Virus record (IMG/VR): IMGVR_UViG_3300046012_000561
Span: 1 to 59,134 of that record
Direction: 5' to 3' (one strand)
Origin: a virus
Lineage: Duplodnaviria > Caudoviricetes
DNA length: 59,134 bases
Numbering within the stretch: position 1 is the stretch's first letter; the number at the start of each line of letters is the position of its first letter. The notes under the pieces were generated by a model, which worked only from the letters and a program-made list of their open reading frames with translations, did no database searches and was not told the DNA's origin. The position numbers were made by a program, and so were the translations under genes. Positions 2,997 to 55,807 of the stretch are shown here, one piece after another.

Positions 2997-3218
2997 TTAT
3001 TGGTCAGGCAAGGCACGGATTTCTTTGACACAATCCCGCACATCAGCATTAGTGAAAAACCACTTCCGCATGACGCGGATAATTTCATCCCGCATATCAC
3101 AGCGCCCGGCATGTCTTCCGCGCAAGTAGGCCAATTCTAGCGCGCCAGTAACATTGCGGTCCTCGCGCACCCGGTTTTTCCAAGGGCGCTTCAAGTCGGC
3201 TATGGCTTCACTGCTCAT
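2997..3218 (-). CDS. Hypothetical protein
   Basis: GAGGAG RBS, packed operon. Confidence 0.6.
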   Translation of the reverse strand: MSSEAIADLKRPWKNRVREDRNVTGALELAYLRGRHAGRCDMRDEIIRVMRKWFFTNADVRDCVKEIRALPDQ

Positions 3219-3227
3219 GAACGCTCC

Positions 3228-3425
3228 TCAGAATTTCAGCGTGTAGCCAAGGCGTAAGATTTCCTTGAGCGCATCGGCGGCGTGCATTCGGCCCGCAAAG
3301 TCGGTGCCGTGGTGATCTTGAACGCAGGTATTGAGATATCCGCGCAGTTCGCGGAATAGGCGTTGATGTTCTGCGCCGTCCGTAAGGTCATACGCGCGCG
3401 CCGGGTTGGGATTTGGGTTAGGCAT
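3228..3425 (-). CDS. Hypothetical protein
   Basis: ORF in early operon orientation. Confidence 0.55.
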   Translation of the reverse strand: MPNPNPNPARAYDLTDGAEHQRLFRELRGYLNTCVQDHHGTDFAGRMHAADALKEILRLGYTLKF

Positions 3426-3492
3426 AGGGCTCGTCTCTAATTGGTGGTTTCGGGGACGGGGTTTTCACCGCCGTTCCATTCTGTGAAGCCCT

Positions 3493-3672
3493 TCAGGACG
3501 CATCAGAAGGTTGACGGGGATATTTCGGAACCCTGGCGTTGTGCTGGTCGCGCAACACCTTGTCCGCGCCGTGATAGCGGCCCAAGACATACCCCGCGAT
3601 AAACAGCATCAAGGCCAGAGACGCCGCTACAATCTCGCTGGCCGGGTTATGAAGTGTGAATTGCAGATTCAT
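3493..3672 (-). CDS. Small single-TM protein (59 aa)
   Basis: Manual: MNLQFTLHNPASEIVAASLALMLFIAGYVLGRYHG...; GAGGA RBS; below the ORF-track cutoff. Confidence 0.55.
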   Translation of the reverse strand: MNLQFTLHNPASEIVAASLALMLFIAGYVLGRYHGADKVLRDQHNARVPKYPRQPSDAS

Positions 3673-3681
3673 GATTTCCTC

Positions 3682-3870
3682 TCAAAATTCCGGGGCAACT
3701 GACAGCCGCCATGCCGGTATCCAAACTTCCTTGTGCTCGCCGTTGCACCAATAGGCGCACTGAAATTCCGCCGCGCCTTCGGCCCGATAGAGCGCGCCCA
3801 CCACGACCATTTTGTTGCTCGCGTCTCCGTCCGCGATCACCTTCTGGCCGAAATCGAATTGGTGCTGCAC
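3682..3870 (-). CDS. YodC/DUF2158-like small protein
   Basis: FDFGQKV...KMVV...FQCAYWCNG pattern. Confidence 0.55.
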   Translation of the reverse strand: MQHQFDFGQKVIADGDASNKMVVVGALYRAEGAAEFQCAYWCNGEHKEVWIPAWRLSVAPEF

Positions 3871-3883
3871 CAGATGCTCCTCG

Positions 3884-4174
3884 TCAGTGAACGCCGTTAA
3901 GGCGCATGTTGCGGTTGTGCTGCGACAAGGCGTCAGCCGTCATCTTGCCGAACTCGCATTGGGCCACCAGCATCGGGTGCGAAGCTCTGACCGTTTCGAC
4001 AGCATGGCGGAAATCCATCTCCCCGCGCTCGACCGCACAGTGGATGCCGTAGTCGCTTTCCAGCTCGCCGGTGAAGCAAGTCAGTAGGTTCGGCACATGC
4101 CCGGCGACATACAGCGGGCAATGCTGGATCGCATCCTTGTGGGGGCAGTCAGCGAAGTTCTTTGCGTGGCGCAC
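3884..4174 (-). CDS. Hypothetical Cys/His-rich protein
   Basis: Coupled ORF with CPH/CPLY motifs. Confidence 0.6.
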   Translation of the reverse strand: MRHAKNFADCPHKDAIQHCPLYVAGHVPNLLTCFTGELESDYGIHCAVERGEMDFRHAVETVRASHPMLVAQCEFGKMTADALSQHNRNMRLNGVH

Positions 4175-4380
4175 TATCGACCCCCGCCACGCGCGGCTAG
4201 CGCCGCTTTGCCCGCTTCGTTAATAAAACACAGCGGGCCATCGACCTCGACCAGGGGCGGGTCTTGCATCCCCAACGTGATGAGGTTCTGCCGGTGCGCT
4301 TCGCTGCACCTGCCAAGATCGGCACGGCGCTGTTGCACCGCCGCCAGGCTCGCCCATTCGTGTCGGTTAAGGTTCGGCAT
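4174..4380 (-). CDS. Hypothetical protein (possible small winged helix)
   Basis: LITLG...LVE...FINEAGKAAL; AGGAG RBS. Confidence 0.55.
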   Translation of the reverse strand: MPNLNRHEWASLAAVQQRRADLGRCSEAHRQNLITLGMQDPPLVEVDGPLCFINEAGKAALAARGGGR

Positions 4381-4387
4381 GACGCTC

Positions 4388-4567
4388 CTATTCCTCTATG
4401 CCTTCGCGGCACTCAAAATGACTGTTGCCTTTGCCGACGATGCGGATGCGCGTGGGGTAGCAGGACAGTTTTTCACCGGCCTTCAAAACTGCGAGCTTGT
4501 CATAGCCGCGCACCTTGACCTCCAATTCGGCGGGGCCGTGGTTTTTGATCGTGTGATAGGTGTCCAT
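4388..4567 (-). CDS. Hypothetical protein (59 aa)
   Basis: Manual: MDTYHTIKNHGPAELEVKVRG...; GAGGAG RBS. Confidence 0.5.
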   Translation of the reverse strand: MDTYHTIKNHGPAELEVKVRGYDKLAVLKAGEKLSCYPTRIRIVGKGNSHFECREGIEE

Positions 4568-4578
4568 GAAACGGCTCC

Positions 4579-4767
4579 TCAGGCTGCTGTGACTGTTCTG
4601 GCGTCAAACATAGGATGGCAGGGCGCGTGCCCGACGACGCAGTAGCGAACCTCGCCCGCGTCGTTCACCCATGCGTCACCCGCGAAGGCGTCACCGCGCG
4701 ATATGCGGCGGTCCGCTTCCGGCTGGCGCTTCCAGTTAACGTCTTTGAATGTCGGCCATTTGGTCAT
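4579..4767 (-). CDS. Hypothetical protein
   Basis: ORF in early operon. Confidence 0.5.
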   Translation of the reverse strand: MTKWPTFKDVNWKRQPEADRRISRGDAFAGDAWVNDAGEVRYCVVGHAPCHPMFDARTVTAA

Positions 4768-5042
4768 GGTGGTGATCGCTCGCTATCGGTTGGAAGGTTT
4801 GCGGAAGGAAGGGCGGCGGCATGGCGCAATCAACTGTGCCTTGGTGATCGCCGTCATGTCGTCGGCCGTCATGATCCTGGCAATGATTTCGCGGACAGGT
4901 TCGCGCATCGCCTCGACCTCATCGCGCTCGCGCGAATGGCGATGAGGTGCTGCATGAGCCCGCCGGCGTCGAAACTCGCGTCTTTCAATAGCGGTGTGGG
5001 GCTCGCCCTGGTCGAGGCTTGCGGCGGGACCTTTCTGTGACC

Positions 5043-5393
5043 TCATGGTTGGTCGCCCCCGTCGAACTTGGCCCAATGGGTGATGTTGTCGGCCGCGAGC
5101 TCGTCGCCTTCAGCCGCCCAGCCATAGGCGTGGCGAGTAGGAATCCACCAGACGAAGCCGCGATCATTTTTGCTACGCGTTCGGTACATCTTCCCGTCTT
5201 GGGGGACTGGCGCCAGGGTGATGTCCACCCAGTTGGCGCGCAGGCTGTCATGGACGGCCTGCATCGCCGCCAGTTCCTTGTCGGCGTCTTCCTGTTTCAT
5301 CCGGCCCGACGCCACCCATTTGGGATAGACGTTCTGGCGCATTGCGATCTCGCGCCGGACGCAGCGGATTTGATCGGCGACGGTGACGGTCAC
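5043..5393 (-). CDS. Phage hypothetical protein (helical N-domain plus DUF551-like C-domain)
   Basis: DQIRCVRREIAMRQNVYPKWV...; C-terminal W...P.DG...ITHW. Confidence 0.65.
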   Translation of the reverse strand: MTVTVADQIRCVRREIAMRQNVYPKWVASGRMKQEDADKELAAMQAVHDSLRANWVDITLAPVPQDGKMYRTRSKNDRGFVWWIPTRHAYGWAAEGDELAADNITHWAKFDGGDQP

Positions 5394-5620
5394 GGCAACC
5401 TCCCAAAATAGATGACGCCCCTGGTGAAGAGGCTGTTCGCGGCCTTGGTGCCGACCAGCTTCATGAATTCGCCGGATGTGGTGGCGGCGAGGATTTTTGC
5501 CACCAGGGCCTTGTCCTCATCGGAGGCGCGCGTCTCGTCCATTTGCAGAAGCCCGCGCAGGGCGAAGCAGTTCTGTTCGAGCAGGGTGGGGGCTTGCTGC
5601 GCTTCAGCCAGGGTGGTCAT
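5390..5620 (-). CDS. Hypothetical protein
   Basis: 4-nt overlaps on both sides. Confidence 0.6.
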   Translation of the reverse strand: MTTLAEAQQAPTLLEQNCFALRGLLQMDETRASDEDKALVAKILAATTSGEFMKLVGTKAANSLFTRGVIYFGRLP

Positions 5621-7332
5621 GCTGCCAGCACCTCGCGGGCCCAGGCCGACAGGCTCACCATGCCCGGCGACGGCTTCTCGAACACCGTCAGGGTGCAGAG
5701 CGCGCCGATCAGGTTGTTGAAGCCGCCACTGGTGGGGGAATAGTCAGTGGCGGCGGCGAGATCGTCCCTGCTCATGGGGCCGTCCTCCAGCAGCACCGCC
5801 ACAGCCAGTTTCTGCTGCGGTACCGACAGGACGGACATCACCTTGCCCTTGGCCTCGTTCTGGTTCAGGGCGTCATAGGGTGCGCCTTCCGCCAGGGCGA
5901 CATGTCCCGGCTTGGGGATGGTGATGAGGCCCGCCGTATTGAGCTGGCCCAGGAGATTGTTGAAACCTCCCGACGATGGGCTGTAACCCGCAACGCCTGC
6001 CACCTGTGCGCGGCTGGGCTCGTCCGTCCCGACGCTGGCCCAGAATCCGATCGAGGCCAGGACGCGCCGTTGGGGCTGGGGAAGACCGTCTGCGCTGCCT
6101 GCCGACGCCTGCCGGGGGTTCGCGGGGCGCGGCGGGATGGCTCCGGCGGGCGCTGGCGCCGGGATATGGCGGCTCGACCCGACGTTGACCGCCCGCATTT
6201 TCTGCCCAGGGATTGGCTTCCGAGCCGGAACAAGGGCAGGTTCGAACACCGCGCGCCGCGCCGCCAGAAACTCAAACCCAGCCCTGAAGCTGGCCTGGTG
6301 CTGGGCGTCCAGCATGGCGGGGATGGTGTCGCGAACGGCATTGGCGCCTTCCGCGCGCGCCGCCGCCAGTGCCTTTTCCTGGGCCTTATTGTCGGGGGTG
6401 ATAGCTTTTGCGACCGGCTGGGAGGTTTGCGGCGCCGCCTTGGGCTTGTCCTTCTCGGCCAGCTTGGCGGTCATCTGCGCCACGAAGGCCCCCGCCGCCA
6501 CCGGCTTGCGCTTCTCGGCTCCTGGTACCGCCGCGGCCCGCCTGTCCGGGTGCTGGCTGTTCTTGGCCGGCACCTGCAGATGGACCGGCTTCGTCAGGTC
6601 ATTGATGAAGGCCCAGCACTCGCCGGATTTCAGGCTGGGGAGGCTCTCGGCGATTTTCTTTTCTTCGCCTTCCGACAGGTCCAGCAGCGAGATCCACTTC
6701 TTCAGGTCCAGGATCGTGTTCTTGCCCTTTTGGCGGTGGACGAAGACGTTCGCGCAAAGCTCCAGGACTGACTTGTTGAGGTCGGCGCTGCGCTGGTTGA
6801 TGAGGGTACAGCCGAGCTTGGAATTGCCGCCCATGCGGACCAGCTTTTCCACCGCCGAGAACACCAGCATGTCCTGCGGCCGCTGGGGGACAAACTCGGC
6901 CGCTTCCTCGATGAAGATGTGGCGCAGGCCGTGATCGGCGTTCTCATGCAAGAGAATTTCCACCGTCTCGCGCACGATGCGGCGCCAGTCGGCTTTCGAC
7001 ATCTCGATGCTGAACAGGTCCAGCACCAGGCTGACCCCTGCCTCCATCGCGGCCCTGACGATTGCTCCCGCGTTCTTGATGGTCAGAGGCAAGTCGCCAT
7101 GCTTCCCGCCGGCCACCACCACCGGATAGCCCTTACCCCGTCCTGGAATACGAAGGCTGTGCCAGACCCCAATAGGGTCCAGGGCGATGAATGGCACGCT
7201 CGCGTCGTACAGTTCTTCCGCTGCTTCGGTGGCGGTGTAAGTCTTGCCGGAATCGCGTATGCCGAGAATGGCATTAGCCGAGATGGCGTATTCGCTGAGG
7301 GACCAGCCCTTAACGCCAAGGATCGTGGTCAT
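5617..7332 (-). CDS. HerA/FtsK-like (DUF87-type) P-loop ATPase with two C-terminal winged-helix-like repeats
   Basis: Walker A GIRDSGKT, LDPIG, Walker B IFIEEA, LINQRSA; repeats GYSPSSGGFNNLLGQL and DYSPTSGGFNNLIGAL. Confidence 0.85.
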   Translation of the reverse strand: MTTILGVKGWSLSEYAISANAILGIRDSGKTYTATEAAEELYDASVPFIALDPIGVWHSLRIPGRGKGYPVVVAGGKHGDLPLTIKNAGAIVRAAMEAGVSLVLDLFSIEMSKADWRRIVRETVEILLHENADHGLRHIFIEEAAEFVPQRPQDMLVFSAVEKLVRMGGNSKLGCTLINQRSADLNKSVLELCANVFVHRQKGKNTILDLKKWISLLDLSEGEEKKIAESLPSLKSGECWAFINDLTKPVHLQVPAKNSQHPDRRAAAVPGAEKRKPVAAGAFVAQMTAKLAEKDKPKAAPQTSQPVAKAITPDNKAQEKALAAARAEGANAVRDTIPAMLDAQHQASFRAGFEFLAARRAVFEPALVPARKPIPGQKMRAVNVGSSRHIPAPAPAGAIPPRPANPRQASAGSADGLPQPQRRVLASIGFWASVGTDEPSRAQVAGVAGYSPSSGGFNNLLGQLNTAGLITIPKPGHVALAEGAPYDALNQNEAKGKVMSVLSVPQQKLAVAVLLEDGPMSRDDLAAATDYSPTSGGFNNLIGALCTLTVFEKPSPGMVSLSAWAREVLAA

Positions 7333-13419: not shown

Positions 13420-14328
13420 TCAGTAGGAAATTGCGACGGCGGGAATGGCCTTCTTGGCGATCAGGATCACCACCTGCTTTGCGATTTCCTCGCTCAGCCC
13501 CCCTGCTATGAAGGCAGCGACGGCAGCGCGATTGATTGCAGCCCTGCGGGCGACTTCAGGATCAGGGGCGGGCGCGGGCGGCGCTGCAGCGGGCGCCGAA
13601 GTGGCCGCGGGCTGTTGCTGGCTGGACGCCGGCGGTTCTGGCGCTGCCTCCTGCGGTTTGGCAGCTTCTTCTTCGAGCTCGCGCACCACTGCGGCCTGAC
13701 GATCCGCTTCCGCGCGATCGGCGGCTTCCTGGCGCAGACGGGCCAATTCTGCCCGATCTGCTTCAAGAGTGGTGGCACCGGCCAGGGCTTCGGTCAGAGA
13801 GGCGTGGGCCGCATCCTTCGCCCGCTGGTATTCCGCCTCGAATTCCTCGCAAGCCGGGCCGACTTGGACGCTCTCGACATAGGCCAGGCTTTCTTTCAGG
13901 CCTGCGATGTCCCGCCCGGCGGCATTGCGCGAGAGCTCGTTCAGGAGCGTCAGGGCGTCGGTGTGCTTCTTGACCCGCGCTTCCTCGGCAGCCTCAAAAT
14001 CTGTCAGCGGTTTGCGGACTTCATCCCGCCAGGCATCGAGCGTGTCCTTGATCTTCTTCCGGCAGGCGTCGATCTTTTTCGGGATTTCCTTCTGCTCGTC
14101 GGCCAGGGTCTTGCCGACACCTTCCAGATAGGTTTTGGACTGCGCCACCTTGTACGCCATCGAGGCAATCGCCTTGCGGCTGGCGGCCGTGGTCATGTCG
14201 GGCACGAAGGCCTCAATCTCGGCGCGGATCATCGCGAGGTAGGGATCAATCGCCTTGTCGGTAGTGAAAACCGAGAAGGCGGATTCCTTCGGGATGGTGA
14301 CGAGCTGGGTGGGGGCTTCCGCGTTCAT
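13420..14328 (-). CDS. Coiled-coil phage protein associated with the recombination module
   Basis: RKAIASMAYKVAQSKT...RKPLTDFE; long Ala/Glu-rich helices. Confidence 0.75.
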   Translation of the reverse strand: MNAEAPTQLVTIPKESAFSVFTTDKAIDPYLAMIRAEIEAFVPDMTTAASRKAIASMAYKVAQSKTYLEGVGKTLADEQKEIPKKIDACRKKIKDTLDAWRDEVRKPLTDFEAAEEARVKKHTDALTLLNELSRNAAGRDIAGLKESLAYVESVQVGPACEEFEAEYQRAKDAAHASLTEALAGATTLEADRAELARLRQEAADRAEADRQAAVVRELEEEAAKPQEAAPEPPASSQQQPAATSAPAAAPPAPAPDPEVARRAAINRAAVAAFIAGGLSEEIAKQVVILIAKKAIPAVAISY

Positions 14329-33643: not shown

Positions 33644-33931
33644 ATGGATTTGCCCTTCGTCCGCCAGTATCCCAACGGGCGACGCGCGCTGGCGACCATC
33701 AGCGTGGCGGATGACGTTGGCCACCTGGGCAAGAAGTTCATCGCCCTGGGGGGCGCCTATGTCTGCGAGATTCTGCCGAGCGGGTATGCCCGCATAGCGG
33801 CCTGCCTCGAAGGCAAGGACGGCAAGCAGCAGGATGTTGAGCAGGACGCCTGCGAGAATGGGCCCGGCCTTCCCGAAGCGGTTGAGCGCCTGGTTCGGGC
33901 CTCCGTCCAGCACATCGAGACGCACGGGTGA
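33644..33931 (+). CDS. Hypothetical protein
   Basis: PFVRQYPNGR; coupled to portal. Confidence 0.65.
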   Translation: MDLPFVRQYPNGRRALATISVADDVGHLGKKFIALGGAYVCEILPSGYARIAACLEGKDGKQQDVEQDACENGPGLPEAVERLVRASVQHIETHG

Positions 33932-36375
33932 GAGATGACCTTCAGGACTTGCCCGATGAAGTGAGAGACGAAATCGCCCCCCACATGGACGGGGACGGCG
34001 AGAATTCAATCCTGGATTTGCTGAGCCAGGCCATTGCCGCCAAGCGCGACGAAGCCAAGAAAGCGCGCCTGACTTCCGGTATCGAGATGGCCTGGAAGGA
34101 ATGCGAGGAGGCTTACGCGGGGATCGACGACGCCAACCGGGCGGAATTCGCGGGCGCCAACTGGTCCAAGCCGATGGCTTTGCAAGGCCCGGTCACCACC
34201 GGCCGGCGCGATCCCAGTCCCGACGTCAAATCCACGGCTTTCGTTCCTATCACCGCAAGATATGTGGATGCGGGCGCGGCCAAGCTGGGGGAAATCCTTC
34301 TGCCGGCCGACGACAAGGCCTTCAGCTTTACCGAAACCCCCGTTCCCGACCTGATCCGCGGCAAGGAAGATACCCGCCAGGTTCTCCACGACGGGATGGG
34401 CAATGTCCCGCTCACCCGCAACGCCAAGCCGGGCGAGGCCGTTCCTCAGGTGGGCGCTCCCATCCCTGCCGGTGTCGCATCCGCGGCTTTGCCCACATCG
34501 CTTTCAGGCATGATGGCCGCCCAGGCCCAGCCTCCGCAGCCCCAGGACCTTCGGGCTGGTCTTCCTGGCCAACCTGGTCAAGCAGGACCGCCCCAGGTCC
34601 CCCTCACGGTCAAGGACCTGGCCGAAGAAGCCATCGAGTTCGCGCGCAAGAAGGCCAAGAAGGCTGAGACGCGCATCTATGACTGGATGGTGGAGTGCCA
34701 GTACGCCGCTGAAATGCGGAAGGTGATTTTCGATTCCGCCCGTATCGGCGTCGGTGTGCTGAAGGGTCCGTTCCCCAAGGCCGTGCGGAATGTGGCGCTG
34801 TCCACTTCGTCCGCCTCGTCCATCGAAATCGAGATTTCCAACCGGCTGCTGCCCGCCTGCAAATGGGCTGACCCCTGGAATATCTTTCCAGATCCCGCCT
34901 GTGGAGAAAACATCCACGACGGCGACTTCATCTTCGAGCGGGACTTCCTTTCCCCGCGCCAGGTCCGCGACCTGAAGAATGAGCCGGGCTATATCGCTGC
35001 CCAGATCGACAAGGCCCTGGAAGAGGGGCCCCAGGGCAACGTCACCGACACTGAAAGGCCCTCGACCACCACCGACCCCGGCAAGTCCATGAAGGGGCGC
35101 TTCGAGGTCTGGTACTATTACGGCACGATTTCACGGGAGCAGATGGGCTGTGCTTGCAGCGCGGCCGGAAAGCCCCTCAGCACCAAGGAATTGCCGCCGG
35201 ATCGCAACGAAGTCTTTGTCATCGTCACCTTGATCAACGACAAGGCGGTCAGAGCTACCTTCAACCCGCTGGATTCGGGATCGTTCCCCTATCATTCGGT
35301 CCCCTGGCAGAGGCGCGCTGGTTACTGGGCCGGCAAAGGCGTTTCCGAGCAAATCCGCACCGCCCAGCGGATGGTCAATGCCGCCACCCGAGGGATGCTC
35401 AACAACGCGGGCTTCAGCGCCGGTGTTCAGGTGGTCATCGACCGAAGCTGCATTTCCCCGGCGGATAGCGTCTGGATCATCACGCCCAACAAAATCTGGA
35501 ACAAGACCGGGGACAGCCCCGGCGATGACGTCCGCAAGGGCTTCAGCCTCTTCAAGATACCGAACTGCACCCCGCAGCTTATGTCGATTGTGGAATATGC
35601 CCTGAAGCTGGCGGAGGAATCGACCTCGATCCCGCTTATTACCCAGGGACAATCCGGCCCCACCACACCGGACACTTTCGGCGCCGCCCAGTTGCAGAAC
35701 AACAACGCCAACCAGCTTCTGCGCTCCATCGGCTATACCTTCGACGACTTCATCACCGAGCCCGTGGTGCGGCAGTACTACGAATATCTCCTGCTTGATC
35801 CCGATGTCCCCGACGACGAGAAGGGCGACTTCACGATCAACGCGCATGGGTCGGTTGCCCTGGTTGAAAGGGCCATTGCCGACCAGACGATTGCCCAGCT
35901 TCTGCCGCTCTCGCTCAATCCGGCCTACGGCCTGGACCCGAAGCGGGCTATGAAGCAGACGATCAAGTCCAAGCGGCTCGATCCAATGGAATTTGAATTC
36001 ACGCCAGAGGAACAGCAGAAGATCGACAGCCAGCCGCCTCCTCCTCCTCCCGCCGTCGCTGCCGCCCAAGTGCGCGCCGCCTCGGACGAGAAGATCGCCG
36101 CCGAAGACCGGCAACTGGACGAGAAGGAATTGCTGTCCGGCTCGACGGTTGAGCTTCACGCCCTCGACCTGAAGCGGGAACTGGCGATGCTCGATTACGC
36201 AAATCGAAACAACATGAACCTGGACTCCGTGAAATCCGAGCTGGCCAGGACCGCCATGACACTGAAGGCCCAGCAGCAGATGAGCGATGATGGGCGGCAC
36301 AGGGCACCCCAAGTAGCGAATCCTGCCGCCGAACCTCCCGGCCGCGCCCCTAACGGCAAAGCCTTCCAGCAATGA
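33928..36375 (+). CDS. Portal protein (podovirus type)
   Basis: 815 aa after terL; GVGVLKGP, DPWNIFPDP, YWAGKGV..QIR..Q..VN. Confidence 0.88.
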   Translation: MRDDLQDLPDEVRDEIAPHMDGDGENSILDLLSQAIAAKRDEAKKARLTSGIEMAWKECEEAYAGIDDANRAEFAGANWSKPMALQGPVTTGRRDPSPDVKSTAFVPITARYVDAGAAKLGEILLPADDKAFSFTETPVPDLIRGKEDTRQVLHDGMGNVPLTRNAKPGEAVPQVGAPIPAGVASAALPTSLSGMMAAQAQPPQPQDLRAGLPGQPGQAGPPQVPLTVKDLAEEAIEFARKKAKKAETRIYDWMVECQYAAEMRKVIFDSARIGVGVLKGPFPKAVRNVALSTSSASSIEIEISNRLLPACKWADPWNIFPDPACGENIHDGDFIFERDFLSPRQVRDLKNEPGYIAAQIDKALEEGPQGNVTDTERPSTTTDPGKSMKGRFEVWYYYGTISREQMGCACSAAGKPLSTKELPPDRNEVFVIVTLINDKAVRATFNPLDSGSFPYHSVPWQRRAGYWAGKGVSEQIRTAQRMVNAATRGMLNNAGFSAGVQVVIDRSCISPADSVWIITPNKIWNKTGDSPGDDVRKGFSLFKIPNCTPQLMSIVEYALKLAEESTSIPLITQGQSGPTTPDTFGAAQLQNNNANQLLRSIGYTFDDFITEPVVRQYYEYLLLDPDVPDDEKGDFTINAHGSVALVERAIADQTIAQLLPLSLNPAYGLDPKRAMKQTIKSKRLDPMEFEFTPEEQQKIDSQPPPPPPAVAAAQVRAASDEKIAAEDRQLDEKELLSGSTVELHALDLKRELAMLDYANRNNMNLDSVKSELARTAMTLKAQQQMSDDGRHRAPQVANPAAEPPGRAPNGKAFQQ

Positions 36376-37557: not shown

Positions 37558-38628
37558 ATGGGTATTCAAACCTTTAGCCTGGACCCCGCGCGAATCGGGA
37601 AGTTCAAGGGCCAAATCCTGAAGCATGCCGTTCCGTTCGAAGTTCTTGGGCGCGCCGGCCGTCAGGTCCAGATGCCCAAGAACAATTCCGACACCTATGT
37701 CGCCCGCCGCTGGCTGCCCTATGGCGCCACCGCCACTACCGCATCGTCCCAGAACCAGTTCTTCCAGAACGCGGACGGTGATCGTGGTCAGGCGATGGTG
37801 CAGGCCAACCAGGCCCAGGAAGGCGTCACCCCGGCGCCGGACAGCATCGCGCCGATCGACATCACCGTGGTGATGCAGCAGTACTCCTGCCTCTACGGCT
37901 TCACCGACAAGACCTACGACCTCTACGAAGACGATATCCCCAAGGCGATGATCGAGCAGGTTGGCGAGCGCGTCACGCTGGTCAACGAGATGATCATCTA
38001 TGGGGCGCTCCGGGCCTGCACGAACCAGTATTTCGGCGGGACGGGCACCACGGTCGCCACGGTCAACGGGGCCATCTCCCTCGGCCTGGTCCGCAAGATC
38101 GCCAAGAACTTGCAGGCCAACCACGGCAAGCCGGTCAACAAGATGCTGAAGGCCGGGGCGAACTTCGACACCAGCGCCGTGGCGGAAGGCTTCACCGTCT
38201 ATTCGCACACCGACCTGGAGCCGGATATTCGCGACCTGCCGAACTTCACCCCGGTTGAGAAATATGCGACCGGCACCGCGATGCCCAACGAGATCGGCAA
38301 GTGCGAGCGGTTCCGCTTCATCACGTCGCCTGATCTGCCGTCCCTGCAGAACGCGGGCGCGGCTGTGGGCGCCACCGGCCTCTACTCCACCACGGGCGCT
38401 CTGATCGACGCCTATCCCTTCATCGTGACGGCCCAGGATGCCTGGTCCCAGATTGCGGTGCGCGGGCTGAAGTCGCTCGACCCCACCTTCCTGCCCCCCG
38501 GCGAGAAGTCCAAGTCCGACCCCCTTGGCCAGCGCGGCTACTGCGGTTCGATCTGGTGGAAGGCCGTCATGATCGAGAATCCCGGCTGGATGGCCGTGGG
38601 TTTCGTCGGCGTCCGGACGCTCTCGTAA
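37558..38628 (+). CDS. Major capsid protein, N4-gp56 family
   Basis: MPKN.S, EGVTP, HTDLEPDIR, EIGKCERFRFI, SDPLGQRG. Confidence 0.9.
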   Translation: MGIQTFSLDPARIGKFKGQILKHAVPFEVLGRAGRQVQMPKNNSDTYVARRWLPYGATATTASSQNQFFQNADGDRGQAMVQANQAQEGVTPAPDSIAPIDITVVMQQYSCLYGFTDKTYDLYEDDIPKAMIEQVGERVTLVNEMIIYGALRACTNQYFGGTGTTVATVNGAISLGLVRKIAKNLQANHGKPVNKMLKAGANFDTSAVAEGFTVYSHTDLEPDIRDLPNFTPVEKYATGTAMPNEIGKCERFRFITSPDLPSLQNAGAAVGATGLYSTTGALIDAYPFIVTAQDAWSQIAVRGLKSLDPTFLPPGEKSKSDPLGQRGYCGSIWWKAVMIENPGWMAVGFVGVRTLS

Positions 38629-49339: not shown

Positions 49340-52300
49340 ATGGCCCTTGATCTGGCTGGCCTTAAGCCAGTTGGCGATGCGCCGCGCTTCGATGTGGGCG
49401 GCCTAAAGCCGCTCGATGTAGCGCCGGATCGCTCCTTCGCTGATGTTCGGCAAGGCTCGATTGACGATAACGAGGCAGACCGCTTCCGCGCCGTGAAAAC
49501 GATGGCCGCGGCGGCGTCGCCCAATGAGAGCGACTGGCTCGATCTGGGCAAGAAGGCGCTGGAAAACGGCTGGACCAGCTTTCGCCAGGCGGCGGGCGGT
49601 ATCGCCCAATATGCCGGCGAGAACATGCCGGCCCCTTACGGCGCCGATGTCCCGATGGGCTTTGCCGAGAGTGCCCAGGCGGAGAACCTTTCCAAGGCCA
49701 TGAAGGGGAGCGTCGCGATTTCTGGATCGCCCGCCAATATCGGAAAGGCGATTTATGACGCCGCCACTGCCGACATCAAAGCCAATGCCCCCAAGCTGAA
49801 CGAAGGCAGCGCGAAGGATTACGCTTATCAGGCCGGCACATCGCTTGTGCAGATGATTCCGACTTTGGCGGCGTCTCTCGCCACGGGAAGCCCGGCACCC
49901 GGCTTGGCGCTGATGGGTGGCCAAGTCGCCGGCCAGCAATACGGGCAGGCCCGCAATGAGAGCGGTCGCAGCCCCGACCAGGCCGGCGTCGATGCCATGT
50001 TCTACGCCTTGGCCGAGACCATCCCCGAACAAATCCCCCTCGGCATCCTGATGAAGCCAGGCGGCAAATTCCTGCCCAGGCTGCTCAAGACGATGGGCGC
50101 CGAGGGCCTTCAGGAAGCCTTCACCCAGGTTCTGGAATCCGGGTACGACAAGGGCACCGTCAGCCCCGACATGACATGGGGCGATGCGTTCCGGCAAGTT
50201 CGGGACGCGGGCATTGTCGGCGCTGTCATGGGCGGCGGCTTGGGCGCAGCGGCCCACCCCTTCACGCGGGGAGGGGCCGAGGAGCCCAAGCCCGAACCGG
50301 AAGCGCCGCCTGCGGCCGAACCCGGCCCGCAGGTCGAGCCCCTTTCCACCCAGGGCCTGACGCCCCTAGAAGCGCCTCCCGAGGCTGCTCCCGTCCCGAC
50401 CGCGGCAAAGGTCATCCCCAACGAAGAACCCCTATACGACGCCACTGGGGAGTCCCAGATCGGCTGGCATGATCGGGCGACCGGCCGCATCCGCATGCTG
50501 GAGAAGCAGCCGGAGGAGGTGGCCAGGGCTGTCATGGACGCGCCCAGCCTGCACGATGCCATTGCCACGGCGGAGGCAGAAGCGTTTGCGCCCGTGCACG
50601 GCCTGCCGGAAGACGTCGCGCCGCCGGTGGAGAGCGATCTCGTTGTGCCGCCCGCGCCGCTGGAGCGCGTCGAGCCGGTGCCGCTGGCGCCCGTCTCCAG
50701 CCTCGAAACCCCGGCGGTGGCCAGCGCCGGCGAAATGCCGCCCGCCGCCCGGGCCCCCGAGGGGATCACCCCTGCCGCCAGTGAAATCAATGCCTTGGCC
50801 GAAGAACAGCCCCAGGAGGAGATCACCCCCCCGCCAGCCCGCACCGGCCGCGTCCGTGGCCTTCCCCGCCGGCTGACCAAGGGCCCCGAAGACGCCGCCA
50901 TGTTCCTGGCTTCCCAAGGCGGCATCCGAAACGACGAAGGCCATGACCTTGTTAAGGGGCGGGGCCTGCAACAGTTCGTGCCCGGGCTTGGCCCCCTGAT
51001 CCGCCCCAAGGGCATGACCATAGACGCCGCCGGGCAAAAGCTCTGGGAAGCCGGGTTCTTTGGCCAGGTCGATCATGGGGAAGGCGTCAGGGAGGCCAAC
51101 GGGCCAACCGAGGCCGATGTCCTGGAACTGTTGGAGCGCACCGGCCGGGGTGGTGACGGCCGCCCCACAAAGGTCTTCCGCCCTGGTGACGCCGCGGACA
51201 TCGAAATCGCGCGGGAGGGCGAGCGAGTGGCCGAGGCCAATGCCAGCGTCCTGGAAGACGTTCACAACTACGCCAAGAGCCTGAGCGAAACCCTGACGGA
51301 AGCCGAGGCGGACCAGATTGTCAGCGACATGGTCGCCCACGGCATCGATGCCGAATCCGCCGTGGTCGAACACCTTGAACGCAAGGCTATCCAGGAGGAC
51401 AATGAGGACCATGCAGATGCAGCAATCCAGCCCGCGCCCCAGGCCCACCCTGTCGTTGAAAGAGCGCCAGGCGTTGATCGAGCGGCTGGAAGCGGGGTCC
51501 AAGAACCCGAAGCTGTCCCCGGAAACGAGGGCGGCCCGCAAATCGAGAGCGAACCAGCTCAGGCGGATTCAGGAACTTCGGATCAGCCAGAAGCGGAAGT
51601 AGCCTCCCAGCCAGAGGGTATTCCGCCGCTACCGCATGGCAATGGGTCCTGGGTCATTGTGGACCGCGCCACCGGGCATGCCGCCGCCGAGATTTTCAAG
51701 GGCGACAAGGCGATCAGCCGCGTCAACCTGGAACGGTACAAGGCCGTCCCCGCCGGGGAATATCTGGCCAGCCTGAATAAGGCCAAGGCCCTCACCATCC
51801 CGTCCGAACTGAAGCCGCTGGCCACCGAACCGGGTGCGCTCGACGGGCAGGGCAGAGCCGTTCCCCAGACCATCGCTCCCGGCGCAGACCGCAGCGCTAT
51901 CCAGCTTTCAGCGGCGCGTGAAGCCGCCGGTCATGGACTCTCCACCACCAAGGTCCAGCAGAAAGACGCTGGCGGCATGTTCGCGGCGCCGGAGGAAAAG
52001 GCCACGGACCTGTTCGAGGCGTCCCCCAAGGTGGAACAGGCCGACAATGAACGCCCGATGGCGCAACGCCGGGAAACGGTTTTTGACTGGGGCAACGAGG
52101 GCGGCGGCTCACGCGTCACCAAGATCGGCCCCACCGAAATCACCTATGGCATCGGCAAGGACAAGACGGCAGAACTGACGCTGGTCCGAACCGCCAAGGG
52201 AAGTCGAAAGCAGGGCGCGGCGCGCGCCGCAGTCGAGCAATTCTTGCGTGAAGCTGACGCGCGCGGATATGCCGTTCACCTCACCGCCGATCCGATGGAG

Positions 52301-55300
52301 CCCACCGTCAGCCGCAGTCGGCTGAAGAACTTTTACAAAACGCTGGGTTTCGTCGAGAACCGTGGCCGAACCCGCGACTTCAGCACCCGGGCGGGAATGA
52401 TCCGCGAGCCGCAAAGCGCACCTCTTCCGCAGCGCCCCACTCCCCGGATCACCGACACCTTCACTCCTGAATTCAAGGCCAAGCGCCGTGAGGTGGAGAA
52501 GGAACTGCGGGCTCGGCTGGAAAAGCTAGGGCTCCATGACATCGGCCTCAGGATTTCCGACGCCACCGCTATCGACGGCGAGCCCGTCAACGGCCATTAT
52601 TACCGCAAGGTGATTGCGGTCGCTCTGGATGCTCCCAATCCCATCGGCACCTTCAACCATGAGGCCGTGCATGCGACACGCGCCCTGGGCCTTTTCACAA
52701 AGTCCGAATGGTCTATGCTGGCCAATCGCGCCGCAAAGGACTGGCACTCCCGCTTCGACATCGGCAACCGCTATAGCGAATTCTCGGAAGACCAGCAGAA
52801 TGAAGAGGCTATTGCAGAAGCTTTTCAGGCTTGGACCAAAGACCAAGGCACCCAGAAAGGCACCATCGCCCGAATCTTTCACAAAGTGCGGGACGCCCTA
52901 TCTGCAATCGGGAACGCGCTTAAGGGCCAAGGCTTCGACACCACCGACCGCATCTTCCAGCGGCTCGACACCGGAGAAGTAGGAAGCCGCGAGCGGCCAA
53001 GCACCAAGCCGCCTGAAGCATCCGGCCCGGTGGCCGAGCGCCGCCGCGAGACCGGCCCCTTCAGCCGTCTCGGCGTCGAACCCAACGAAGGCATTTCCGA
53101 TTACCTGACCGATTCCTCGCTGTCCCTGGCTGAAAAGCTGAAGGGCGCGGCATCGCCGCAAGTTCTCAGCGAAAGCGTGGACCGCTGGCGCCGCCTGTTC
53201 CAGGACCGGTTTATTCCTCTTCTCCGCACCCAGCAGGCCATCGAGAAGCAGACCGGCAAGAAGCTGGCTTTGGAGAGCAATCCCTATCTCGCTGAGGAAC
53301 TATCCTCCGGCCGCAAGGGTGCGAAGCTGGAAGACCTGTCGGAGAAGATGGTTCGGCCTCTCATGGCCAACATGGCATCGCGCAATATCACGCTGCCGGA
53401 ATTGGAAACTTATCTCTACGCGCGCCACGCCCCAGAGCGAAACTCTCACATCGCCCAGATCAATCAGGAATTTGCGGGCGATATGCTGAAGGAAGAAGGC
53501 GCCGGATCCGGCATGACCAACGCCGACGCCGCGCAAATCATGCAGGCGGTGAAGGCTTCCGGCAAAGAGAAAGACCTGAAGGCCTTGGCCGGCATGGTGG
53601 ACAAGATTCTCGACTTTGGCCTGAGAGAGCGGGTTTCCGGCGGGCTCATGTCACAGGACCAGGCCGATACCTGGCGCGCGACCTTCCAGAATTATGTCCC
53701 GCTGCGGGGTAAGGCCGAAGTGGACGGTTCGGAAATTGATCGGCCGCGCTTTGGCCGCGGCATCAATATCCGGGGCGCGGAAAGCCAAAGGGCATTCGGC
53801 AGAAACTCGAAGGCCAAGGACATTCTCGCCTATTCGATCATGCAGGCGGAGGAAGCCATTGTCCGGGCCGAGACCAACAAGGTGGGCCAATCCTTCTACG
53901 AACTGGCGAAGGAAAATCCCAATCCGGACTTCTGGAAGGTGGACAAGATCACCGAGCGCCCGGTCTGGAACGAGGCCAAGGGACAAGTCGAATATCGTCC
54001 CGTTGATCGCCTCCTGGCCGAGGACAAGGACTACACCGTCTCCCTGAAGATCGACGGCACCGAACACCGCGTCACCCTCAACCGCGACAATCCCAATGCG
54101 GTGGAACTGGCCAAGTCCATGCGGAACCTCGACAGCGACAAGATGGGTGCGCTCCTTCGCGCCTTCAGTCACGTCAATCGCCTTCTCAGCCATGTGAACA
54201 CGACTCTCAACCCGGAATTCGTCATCACCAATGCCTTCCGCGACGCACAGACCGCGCTCACCAATCTGGCAGGGGAGGAGCAAAAGGGCATCATCTCTGG
54301 AACGCTGAAGGATTATCTGCCGGCGGTGAGGGCCGCCACGCGCGGCGCCTTCGGCAAGACCGATGGCGACTGGGGCAAGTGGTACAATGAATTCCGGGAG
54401 AATGGCGGCCGGGTCTATTTCAACTCGACCGACAATGTTGCCGAAATCCGGGACCGGATCGAGCATGATCTGTCGCGGCTCGCGGCTGGGAAATCTCCCC
54501 AGAGCACCCTTACGGCCATCAAAAATTTCATCGGGAAAACCAATCTGGGTGTCGAAAATGGAATCCGACTCGCGGCCTTCAAGAACGCCCGCGAGCGGGG
54601 AATGTCACCAGAGGAAGCCGCCAGCCTCGCCAAGAACCTGACCGTCAATTTCAACCGGCGCGGCGAACTCGGCCCGCTGATGAATTCGCTCTATCTGTTC
54701 TACAACGCCTCGGTGCAGGGAACGGCGCGGCTCCTGCTGGCCATGAAATCCCCGCGCGTCCGCAAGGTGCTGTATTCCGCTGCAATCATGGGCGCCACCC
54801 TCGACATCCTGAATTCTCTCACCAGCGGAGATGATGACGACGGCGAGAAGTATTACGACAAGATCAGCGACTTCGAGAAGCGCCACAACCTCATCATCAT
54901 GGACCCGACCTCGGACAAGGGGCGCTATTTCAAGCTGCCGCTGCCCTATGGGTACAACGTCTTTTTCGGCATGGGCCGCAATGCCTCCGAAATCTTCCGC
55001 GGCAAACCGGTTACGCGGGCTTTCACCGATCTGGCAGTGACGGCGGTGGACGCCTTCAACCCGATTGGTGGAACCGAAAGCCTCCTCAATCTCATCGCGC
55101 CCACAGTGCTTGATCCCATTGTGGACCTGTCCAGGAACAAGGATTACACCGGCAGGCCCATCATGCCGGATCAACCGCAATACGGTCCGAAGGAAGCAGA
55201 GCACAATCGCTATTGGGGAACGGTTTCTCCCTTGGCTAAACACATCACCGATTTCCTCAATCAGGCCTCTGGTGGCGACGATGTTGTTCCGGGGAAAATC

Positions 55301-55807
55301 GACGTATCCCCCGAAGTGCTGGACTATCTCTTCGGCCAGGTGACGGGTGCGGCAGGAACCTTCTACAGCCGCCTGGCCAATCTCGTTCCAAGGCTGGCGG
55401 ACCCCACTTCCACCGTCTCCTACAATGACATTCCGCTCGCAAGGAAAGTCTCGGGTGGCAAGCCCATCTGGTACGACAAGCAAATGTTCTATGAGCGCGC
55501 CGATTCCATCGAGGAAGCCTATCAGCGGGCTAAGGATTATGGCCTTAAGGGAGATGGTGAAGGCCGACGCGAGTTCATCCAGGAAAACCGGGCCGCGATC
55601 ACCATGCGGCCCTACGCCGAGCGGGCCCGGTCTGCCCTGGCCGATGTGCGGAAGAAGCGCAACGCCTTGGCCATGCTCTCAGAACGCGGCGGAATCGGGA
55701 AAGACGCCTACAACACCCGCGTCAATGCCCTTCAGGACAAAGAGCAGGCCATCATCAGCCAGTTTAACAAGGTCTATCTGGGGAAGGGCCTTCCCTCGGA
55801 GCCTTAG
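49340..55807 (+). CDS. Giant polyvalent DNA-ejection protein (GNAT, zincin-like metallopeptidase, LPD38-like C-terminus)
   Basis: RKQGAAR...LKNFYKTLGF (GNAT); HEAVH...EEAIAE (zincin); LTVNFNRRG, LPLPYGYN, NKDYTGRPI. Confidence 0.85.
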   Translation: MALDLAGLKPVGDAPRFDVGGLKPLDVAPDRSFADVRQGSIDDNEADRFRAVKTMAAAASPNESDWLDLGKKALENGWTSFRQAAGGIAQYAGENMPAPYGADVPMGFAESAQAENLSKAMKGSVAISGSPANIGKAIYDAATADIKANAPKLNEGSAKDYAYQAGTSLVQMIPTLAASLATGSPAPGLALMGGQVAGQQYGQARNESGRSPDQAGVDAMFYALAETIPEQIPLGILMKPGGKFLPRLLKTMGAEGLQEAFTQVLESGYDKGTVSPDMTWGDAFRQVRDAGIVGAVMGGGLGAAAHPFTRGGAEEPKPEPEAPPAAEPGPQVEPLSTQGLTPLEAPPEAAPVPTAAKVIPNEEPLYDATGESQIGWHDRATGRIRMLEKQPEEVARAVMDAPSLHDAIATAEAEAFAPVHGLPEDVAPPVESDLVVPPAPLERVEPVPLAPVSSLETPAVASAGEMPPAARAPEGITPAASEINALAEEQPQEEITPPPARTGRVRGLPRRLTKGPEDAAMFLASQGGIRNDEGHDLVKGRGLQQFVPGLGPLIRPKGMTIDAAGQKLWEAGFFGQVDHGEGVREANGPTEADVLELLERTGRGGDGRPTKVFRPGDAADIEIAREGERVAEANASVLEDVHNYAKSLSETLTEAEADQIVSDMVAHGIDAESAVVEHLERKAIQEDNEDHADAAIQPAPQAHPVVERAPGVDRAAGSGVQEPEAVPGNEGGPQIESEPAQADSGTSDQPEAEVASQPEGIPPLPHGNGSWVIVDRATGHAAAEIFKGDKAISRVNLERYKAVPAGEYLASLNKAKALTIPSELKPLATEPGALDGQGRAVPQTIAPGADRSAIQLSAAREAAGHGLSTTKVQQKDAGGMFAAPEEKATDLFEASPKVEQADNERPMAQRRETVFDWGNEGGGSRVTKIGPTEITYGIGKDKTAELTLVRTAKGSRKQGAARAAVEQFLREADARGYAVHLTADPMEPTVSRSRLKNFYKTLGFVENRGRTRDFSTRAGMIREPQSAPLPQRPTPRITDTFTPEFKAKRREVEKELRARLEKLGLHDIGLRISDATAIDGEPVNGHYYRKVIAVALDAPNPIGTFNHEAVHATRALGLFTKSEWSMLANRAAKDWHSRFDIGNRYSEFSEDQQNEEAIAEAFQAWTKDQGTQKGTIARIFHKVRDALSAIGNALKGQGFDTTDRIFQRLDTGEVGSRERPSTKPPEASGPVAERRRETGPFSRLGVEPNEGISDYLTDSSLSLAEKLKGAASPQVLSESVDRWRRLFQDRFIPLLRTQQAIEKQTGKKLALESNPYLAEELSSGRKGAKLEDLSEKMVRPLMANMASRNITLPELETYLYARHAPERNSHIAQINQEFAGDMLKEEGAGSGMTNADAAQIMQAVKASGKEKDLKALAGMVDKILDFGLRERVSGGLMSQDQADTWRATFQNYVPLRGKAEVDGSEIDRPRFGRGINIRGAESQRAFGRNSKAKDILAYSIMQAEEAIVRAETNKVGQSFYELAKENPNPDFWKVDKITERPVWNEAKGQVEYRPVDRLLAEDKDYTVSLKIDGTEHRVTLNRDNPNAVELAKSMRNLDSDKMGALLRAFSHVNRLLSHVNTTLNPEFVITNAFRDAQTALTNLAGEEQKGIISGTLKDYLPAVRAATRGAFGKTDGDWGKWYNEFRENGGRVYFNSTDNVAEIRDRIEHDLSRLAAGKSPQSTLTAIKNFIGKTNLGVENGIRLAAFKNARERGMSPEEAASLAKNLTVNFNRRGELGPLMNSLYLFYNASVQGTARLLLAMKSPRVRKVLYSAAIMGATLDILNSLTSGDDDDGEKYYDKISDFEKRHNLIIMDPTSDKGRYFKLPLPYGYNVFFGMGRNASEIFRGKPVTRAFTDLAVTAVDAFNPIGGTESLLNLIAPTVLDPIVDLSRNKDYTGRPIMPDQPQYGPKEAEHNRYWGTVSPLAKHITDFLNQASGGDDVVPGKIDVSPEVLDYLFGQVTGAAGTFYSRLANLVPRLADPTSTVSYNDIPLARKVSGGKPIWYDKQMFYERADSIEEAYQRAKDYGLKGDGEGRREFIQENRAAITMRPYAERARSALADVRKKRNALAMLSERGGIGKDAYNTRVNALQDKEQAIISQFNKVYLGKGLPSEP
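51411..51602 (+). CDS. Nested +1-frame gene encoding a 63-aa basic helical protein
   Basis: AGGAGG at 51393-51398; in-frame ATGs at 51402/51411/51417; GC3-rich codons in this frame. Confidence 0.6.
   Translation: MQMQQSSPRPRPTLSLKERQALIERLEAGSKNPKLSPETRAARKSRANQLRRIQELRISQKRK

Follow-up and report, generated by a model that had tools for sequence, protein, structure and literature searches.

A probable small-protein gene nested in the +1 frame of a giant phage polyvalent protein gene

A candidate dual-coding region in a giant phage gene

The window analysed here is a virus record with a G+C content of about 62% (59,134 nt; Caudoviricetes, IMGVR_UViG_3300046012_000561), in which the open reading frame (ORF) at 49340..55807 on the + strand encodes a phage-type polyvalent protein of 2155 aa, referred to below as the host protein. 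Inside this giant gene lies a second ORF of 63 codons plus TAG at 51411..51602 (+), in the +1 frame relative to the giant ORF. Both frames of the region 51411-51602 probably code for protein, the nested one for a small protein that would be translated separately and is conserved by purifying selection. The ORF would then join the out-of-frame nested phage genes; it defines a protein family not described before, and the gene around it is unusual as a host. Its start was set by homology (the ATGs at 51402 and 51417, in the same frame as 51411, are alternatives), and its stop, TAG at 51600-51602, corresponds to host residues 754-755. In the host frame, the same bases form an acidic linker (residues 691-755, 51410..51604, +) without position-specific conservation of its own. 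The linker is preceded by a conserved domain (GGIRNDEGHDL..GRGLQQ, residues ~502-690, 50843..51409, +; defined by alignment A1), which stands before every nested gene detected, and is followed by the next conserved host-frame segment (residues ~758-893, 51611..52018, +; BLASTP to P0004, P0020, P0021 and others). A reading made from the sequence only had proposed that a perfect AGGAGG and in-frame ATGs open a +1 ORF that ends just before the next domain of the host protein. Its coordinates proved exact, the 63-aa peptide that it quoted is the translation from 51411, and the first segment alignable to homologues after the nested stop begins at about residue 758.

In the mechanism that we propose, the host frame would provide an acidic linker of an LPD38 virion protein, unconstrained in sequence and needing only to stay open, and the +1 frame would encode a conserved basic protein of 55-65 aa, in which an N-terminal tail leads into helix 1 and a short loop connects this helix to the long, basic helix 2, so that the nested frame would be the one under sequence-specific purifying selection. 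Translation of the small protein may start internally on the late mRNA, at ATG 51411 or 51417, aided by AGGAGG (51393..51398, +), a Shine-Dalgarno (SD)-like hexamer 12 nt 5' of ATG 51411, or by a second SD-like motif, GAGG (51404..51407, +), 9 nt 5' of ATG 51417. AGGAGG is also part of the host codons Q-E-D, and is thus partly compositional. An amphipathic helical hairpin had been suggested for the peptide; the two helices, at least, are also predicted by AlphaFold2 from an 11-row alignment (mean predicted local distance difference test score, pLDDT, 85.9), in which an N-terminal tail is followed by helix 1 (residues 16-30, 51456..51500, +; containing the invariant Leu26) and helix 2 (residues 37-62, 51519..51596, +; containing the invariant Ala47). 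The nested peptide has an isoelectric point (pI) of 11.9 with 17 Lys and Arg residues, and the host translation of the same bases a pI of 4.1 with 12 Asp and Glu and only 2 Lys and Arg residues.

Position-specific information in the synonymous codons of the host gene

A phmmer search of the nested peptide against 1.84 billion representatives matched four small proteins (P0023-P0026, 58-96 aa, E 3.6e-7 to 5.1e-4), which align with the window peptide without gaps over the core. A Met occupies a common point in four of the five alignment rows, and the first Met of P0026 lies further upstream. DNA of homologous giant genes was found with A1, an alignment of the upstream domain with 10 rows and 36 invariant columns, and comprised 11 viral loci and one metagenome locus (L013). 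An independent profile built from P0023-P0026 only was then run on six-frame translations of 13 loci and the window. The best profile match of each locus was in the +1 frame directly after the domain in L007/8/9, L012, L002 and L003/4; L013 gave a weaker domain hit of this profile at the equivalent place, and the candidate in L005 was chosen by eye, not by the profile. When near-identical loci were merged, a candidate nested ORF was present in six of nine distinct homologous loci, and the host ORF was continuous in all seven loci analysed (the window included).

Three resampling tests kept the host protein and asked how often the +1 frame still resembled the small-protein family. In the first test, synonymous codons were redrawn from the gene's own usage and the +1 frame was scored against the independent profile: the observed score was reached by none of 1000 resamplings in the window, L002, L013, L012, L009 and L003, and by 19 in L005. 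The second, stricter test permuted synonymous codons within the region only, so that the local codon set and its base composition were retained, and the observed score was reached 0, 0, 0, 0, 1, 1 and 61 times in 1000 across the seven loci. In the third test, the free-standing protein P0026 alone served as query under both nulls (gene-wide/within-region), giving per 1000 resamplings 0/0 in the window, 0/0 in L012, 2/0 in L002, 0/38 in L013 and 4/25 in L009, and non-significant results in L003 and L005; five of the seven loci are therefore at or below 4/1000 under gene-wide resampling. Redrawing the codons thus loses the profile similarity, and the synonymous codons of the host gene carry conserved position-specific information that reads as the peptide. 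The claim that selection acts on the nested frame is thus supported in six of seven loci in the first test, persists when local codon usage is retained, and holds for the window even with P0026 as the sole query.

In the reverse test the nested protein was preserved while its synonymous codons were permuted, and the resulting host frame was compared with a linker profile of 11 homologous giants; L002, whose own protein (P0014) is in that profile, was left out. The observed host-frame score was ordinary, being reached by 241, 308, 746, 817, 58 and 679 of 1000 permutations. On the other hand, nested-preserving permutations closed the host frame in 706, 212, 792, 733, 730, 101 and 0 of 1000, and the probability that all seven host frames are open by chance is ~0.003 (product of complements). 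Considering that the reverse score is ordinary and yet the openness of the host frame is improbable, both frames are maintained and only the nested one is constrained in sequence.

These results also bear on two other explanations. The nested ORF might be a relic, that is, a formerly free gene that was engulfed by the giant ORF and retains an undecayed coding signal but is no longer expressed or useful. The existence of a free-standing homologue would fit such a history, an open ORF requires no selection, and the nested gene is known from sequence alone. However, the signal at host wobble sites persists in lineages in which the adjacent domain is only 33-50% identical, and unselected synonymous sites would be saturated at such a distance, which makes a relic very improbable. 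Alternatively, the constraint might act on the nucleic acid (an RNA structure, or a protein-binding or packaging site) rather than on a second protein, since synonymous-site constraint by itself cannot separate RNA from protein. Yet the signal reads as a protein profile built elsewhere, including from a gene in a different genomic context; no Rfam match was found in the region at E <= 1; and the frame statistics are coding-like for the nested and host frames and non-coding-like for the third frame. We therefore regard a constraint on the nucleic acid as extremely unlikely.

Per-position nucleotide conservation was also calculated and was set aside. In the alignment guided by the nested frame, z was 6.4, 11.3 and 0.5 at nested positions 1, 2 and 3, and in the same register the nested frame had a BLOSUM score of +0.60 and the host frame one of -0.18, whereas a host-guided alignment (gappy, 25 columns) inverted the picture, so that this measure is biased by the guiding frame.

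Third-position G+C and the expectation from host composition

The sequence-only reading had counted by hand that 54 of the 63 nested codons end in G or C and only about half of the host codons over the same stretch do so. Computed values confirm the count: third-position G+C (GC3) is 0.859 in the nested frame over 64 codons (54 of 63 sense codons, plus TAG) and 0.484 in the host frame, compared with 0.75 for the giant gene overall and 0.76 for the rest of the gene. Among 11,215 sliding windows of 64 codons from 47 gene-like ORFs of the phage, only 13 have GC3 <= 0.50, and 11 of these start at 51401-51458, with the minimum of 0.484 among them. The remaining two belong to + strand ORFs at 14107 and 21053, which may be mis-chosen shadow ORFs or further frame anomalies. 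The dip recurs across the loci analysed, with region/rest values of 0.49/0.76, 0.39/0.68, 0.36/0.63, 0.50/0.76 and 0.39/0.59; host-preserving resampling reached these five dips in 0/1000 in four loci and in 2/1000 in L003. It is weaker in L013 (56/1000) and L009 (221/1000).

Much of what first draws attention to the nested ORF can be explained by the composition of the linker. The third position of the nested frame is the first position of the host frame, and the host linker is rich in Glu, Asp, Ala, Gly, Pro and Gln, so that a high nested GC3 is to be expected. A stop in the +1 frame can arise only where a host codon has T as its second base; hydrophilic linkers have no such codons, and openness is likewise expected. 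The basic charge of the peptide compared with the acidic linker follows largely from the genetic code. It could be argued, then, that the entire signal is a compositional artefact, in which an acidic, Gly/Ala/Pro-rich linker yields an open, Lys/Arg-rich +1 frame and all such peptides look alike; openness, the ATG, basic charge and high nested GC3 do all derive from host composition, and a host-guided alignment can make the host frame seem conserved. Nevertheless, the similarity to the family disappears when codons are reshuffled with the host protein preserved, even if the local codon set is retained as well. The GC3 dip is unique in the phage, and a Pro/Ala/Glu-rich linker of the same gene with similarly high first-position G+C (~50159-50750) keeps a GC3 of 0.73-0.87, so that linker composition alone is insufficient for the dip. 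An artefact of composition is accordingly hard to credit.

Recurrence among homologous giant genes

Twenty proteins of 1337-3557 aa, including that of the window (P0001), have the segment of residues 500-900 in common, and in the homologous giants a poorly aligning acidic stretch separates the upstream domain (~502-690) from the segment starting at ~758. Searches of genome contigs with A1 and of viral contigs with alignment A2 gave no locus, and the upstream domain matched among phages only one uncultured record, over its N-terminal half. A single-sequence scan of viral contigs gave one locus (L001), which was irrelevant and was discarded.

An aromatic-acidic host-frame motif, Y/F-x-D/E-I/V-P-F/Y-D/E, is found at the start of the linker, over the nested N-terminal tail, in most homologues (P0007, P0009, P0004, P0011, P0010, P0012, P0014/L002 and L013); the window copy does not have it. 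The segment at 51611-51800 (IPPLPHGNGSWVIVDR...YKAVPAGEYL), just past the nested stop, is common to some homologues only (P0004, P0020 and P0021) and is missing from L002 and L013, where the nested ORF abuts an EGLPQT..PGAE motif.

Programmed ribosomal frameshifting, which produces the extension in the G/GT pairs of phage tail chaperones, could also place a conserved peptide in the +1 frame. Here it would give a truncated N-terminal product of ~690 aa ending in a basic two-helix tail, and no separate protein. The +1 frame of the window is open from 51297, 38 codons before ATG 51411; L002, L009 and L003 have no convincing SD; and +1 shifting can be stimulated by an SD-like element a short distance upstream, as is the case for prfB. 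By contrast, the free-standing homologue uses its own ATG and its own SD, and the +1 frame has a stop only two codons before the Met in L005 and eight codons before it in L003. Most family members have a Met before helix 1 (the exceptions are P0026 among the A2 rows and the divergent L003), and no common slippery motif was seen by eye, without a formal scan. Frameshifting is thus improbable as an explanation, and internal initiation remains our preferred reading of how the nested frame may be expressed.

The small-protein family and its free-standing member

P0026 is the product of a free-standing gene of 58 aa, 46% identical to the window peptide, at 5001-5177 of a contig (L014) from a Rhizomicrobium metagenome-assembled genome (MAG), where NCBI annotates it as a hypothetical protein. 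The gene has its own ATG with GGAGAG 9 nt upstream, and is located between genes for a TPR protein (3022-4941) and a serine recombinase (5237-6016; Pfam Resolvase, E 8e-28). No homology to the giant proteins was detected on this 10-kb locus by tblastn with six giants. Judging from its sequence and setting, the peptide family also exists as an ordinary free-standing gene. P0026 lies ~60 nt upstream of the recombinase ORF and, by eye, near a tRNA-like stretch, an HU gene and a lon gene, and the region may be the edge of an integrated element.

For the other members, P0023 and P0024 probably lie inside homologous giant genes, because their N-terminal extensions resemble the +1 frame of the window upstream of the Met. 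P0024 and P0027 are on contigs of 1.1-1.7 kb. The homologue search that had been suggested for the peptide was productive with phmmer, but tblastn of the peptide against phages and plasmids gave no match, nor did P0026 against plasmids; blastn of 51000-52000 against phages was negative as well. A profile search among longer proteins (169-2000 aa) gave no match, which is weak evidence, and the best score in the Atlas comparison, 0.82, fell short of lead level. One of 11 family members touched PF09720 (E 0.13). No antitoxin or immunity family or fold was matched by the peptide in Pfam, PHROG, PDB or Foldseek comparisons, the PADLOC library being outside this search. Two matches were rejected: P0022 (1270 aa, E 1.4e-21), regarded as a repeat artefact whose match is the sum of 14 weak repeats, and a match in G374, 29 residues inside a 531-aa open frame (by eye a sensor protein), which is probably due to chance.

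Observations that weigh against the nested gene

A number of observations weigh against the interpretation of 51411-51602 as a nested gene. Host-preserving synonymous resampling closes the +1 frame in only 96/1000 in the window and 0-715/1000 in the homologues, so that openness of this frame in all seven loci is uninformative (28-100% of resamplings are also open). An ATG in the +1 frame is present in all seven loci, with a chance P of 0.6-1.0 in the six computable loci and 0.91 in the window. SD-like strings arise from GAG-GAN host codons and much of the SD signal is expected from the acidic composition; an SD-like motif lies 8-12 nt upstream in four of the seven loci (the window, L013, L005 and L012) and none at this distance was found in L002, L009 and L003. 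ORF length, presence of an ATG and the SD were consequently dropped as evidence: the initiation signals and open frame noted in the sequence-only reading are real but carry little weight alone, and of the two features that it expected homologues to keep, the open frame was found in all seven loci analysed but the SD in only part of them. Codon log-likelihood is inconsistent for the nested frame, the host frame scoring better in L002 and L013; as a test for the older frame it was mixed across loci and was abandoned, so that the direction of overprinting is left unassigned.

Further points on the same side come from the distribution of the family and from the selection tests. The nested ORF is missing in L006, L010 and L011, three of the nine distinct loci. 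These three also do not have the C-terminal half of the upstream domain, the match ending at residue 116-133 of 189. (In L010, at ~4816, and L011, at ~5191, the ORF with the N-terminal half of the domain ends soon after, so that the giant is split there; the next gene, of ~850-910 aa, is separate and in a different frame.) By the shuffle tests, L005 and L003 are weak family members, and counts of per-position conservation vary with the guiding frame and are not used as evidence. The A3 profile matched only 2 of 401 genomes sampled from the class to which the MAG belongs, one of them the MAG itself, and one match was convincing, indicating that the family is rare. Relatives of the family were found neither in Pfam and PHROGs nor among PDB sequences, with a best Foldseek-PDB E of 3.0. 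The free-standing P0026 has no upstream domain nearby, which weakens a role as dedicated partner of that domain. Finally, translation of the nested ORF is proposed from sequence features; no RNA sequencing runs containing the stretch were listed, only one DNA run.

Putative partner, role and origin

As a tentative suggestion, the small protein might cooperate with the giant protein, in which case the conserved upstream domain would be its most likely binding partner. Domain and nested gene travel as a module among otherwise different giants, which would be expected if the small protein works with the neighbouring domain, and its role might be that of a chaperone, a co-packaged partner or a cis-encoded inhibitor as in a toxin-immunity cassette. 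The predicted complex of the upstream domain (A1) and the peptide (A3) scored 0.59, compared with 0.04 for the best of three controls; contacts agreed at >= 96% between runs and partner pLDDT was >= 80. In the calibration, 58 of 80 solved complexes passed the mark, as did 2 of 110 mismatched pairs; only 7 of the 80 passed it with a score <= 0.60, the range in which both passing mismatches fell, so that the prediction is a lead that supports the pairing weakly. The peptide had previously been proposed to serve the GNAT or peptidase cargo of the host protein. We found no support for such a partner, the sole, weak hint pointing to the upstream domain instead. An alternative role, DNA binding, is suggested by the charge of the peptide and by the recombinase neighbour of the free copy.

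Regarding origin, we lean slightly towards the scenario in which the reading frame of a polyvalent gene became extended across a small gene that was already there, over birth of the small gene within the linker and its later escape, because a free-standing copy exists and the host linker is unconstrained. The earlier suggestion of a gene engulfed by read-through gains from the free-standing homologue, but the direction of the event is unsettled. More broadly, polyvalent proteins might be assembled by reading through small genes, with the engulfed gene surviving as a hidden, separately translated partner that dictates the linker. In this phage the partner would bind the upstream domain as a cis-encoded inhibitor or chaperone; synthesised in the producing cell, it would either be packaged too or be left behind at ejection. 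Taken as a whole, we consider such a picture rather doubtful.

Comparison with known systems and significance

In lambdoid phages, Rz1 lies inside Rz in the +1 frame with its own start, and the Rz1 product binds the Rz product. The nested gene described here resembles this pair in being a small gene wholly within a larger phage gene in the +1 frame. Unlike Rz1, its 63-aa product has no hydrophobic leader or signal peptide, no lipobox and no Cys, and the gene is located in a structural module instead of a lysis cassette; on these grounds an embedded o-spanin of the Rz1 type was ruled out. The host also differs from Rz, being a virion polyvalent protein whose overlapped part is an unconstrained linker and not a functional domain. 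The overprinted genes of phiX174 (E in D, and B in A) are similar in that two frames of one stretch are used, one being constrained and the other compositionally odd. Here, however, the phage has a 59-kb double-stranded DNA genome without obvious genome-size pressure, the small gene also exists as a free-standing gene, and the constrained frame is the nested one. As in toxin-immunity cassettes, a small gene directly follows a conserved domain and both move as a module, but the small gene overlaps a continuing ORF and does not follow a stop, its free homologue is found away from the domain, and the domain is not known to be toxic or to act as an enzyme.

Among the papers listed for polyvalent/LPD38 proteins and for overprinted genes, we saw none that reports a gene nested in a polyvalent protein gene. 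Cassette-like ORFs near polyvalent genes are mentioned in the main text of Iyer et al. 2017 (PMC5512222), in which the terms 'overlap', 'alternative frame' and 'internal start' are absent. Compared with the LPD38 polyvalent proteins of that study, the domain beside the nested gene matches no Pfam family. Another LPD38 protein, gp47 of phi24B (2811 aa), was seen in virions by proteomics and has been proposed to be an ejection protein (10.64898/2026.04.10.717836).

Out-of-frame nested genes escape gene callers, and a conserved phage family stayed hidden in this way, its visible traces being limited to a handful of small ORFs, of which at least two are on short contigs and one is annotated in a MAG. 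What looks like a 'disordered acidic linker' in a giant virion protein can merely reflect another gene read from the same bases, with consequences for domain parsing, structure prediction and engineering of polyvalent proteins. The region also offers a concrete case of how multidomain genes may grow by read-through, and the shuffle design (keeping the host protein and scoring the other frame against an independent profile) is transferable to other giant phage genes. Should the more doubtful picture of engulfed genes surviving as hidden partners hold in general, many immunity or chaperone genes could lie unannotated in the 'featureless linkers' of giant proteins of phages and conjugative elements.

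The host gene and its surroundings

The giant ORF is downstream of a portal/adaptor gene (33928-36375) and a major head gene (37558-38628), both recognised with PHROGs. Pfam detects LPD38 (PF18857) at residues 1838-2016 of the host protein (E 3.5e-42, 145.1 bits, cut-off 27), and the gene is a phage-type polyvalent protein gene of the LPD38 definition, with a Pfam score above the gathering threshold in a very large multidomain phage protein. Across the 20 homologous giants, Pfam finds SLT, peptidase M15, ParB-like and several LPD-type domains, and an intein or helicase in some. A GNAT match at residues 940-1004 of the host protein is weak (E 0.028) and under the Pfam cut-off.

The window copy of the upstream domain has no Pfam match at E <= 1 and no relative of note among PDB sequences or by Foldseek, and its AlphaFold2 model has a mean pLDDT of 72. 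Within this domain of ~190 aa, G-G, E-x-H-D-L and G-R-G-L-Q-Q are invariant and common to polyvalent proteins of very different architecture. An H-E-x-x-H string (NHEAVHAT) at ~52560-52600 (host residues ~1075-1090) suggests a metallopeptidase-like site, with no Pfam match there. A 369-aa antisense ORF (50432-51541, - strand) and other long shadow ORFs overlap the giant gene, as is ordinary in G+C-rich DNA.

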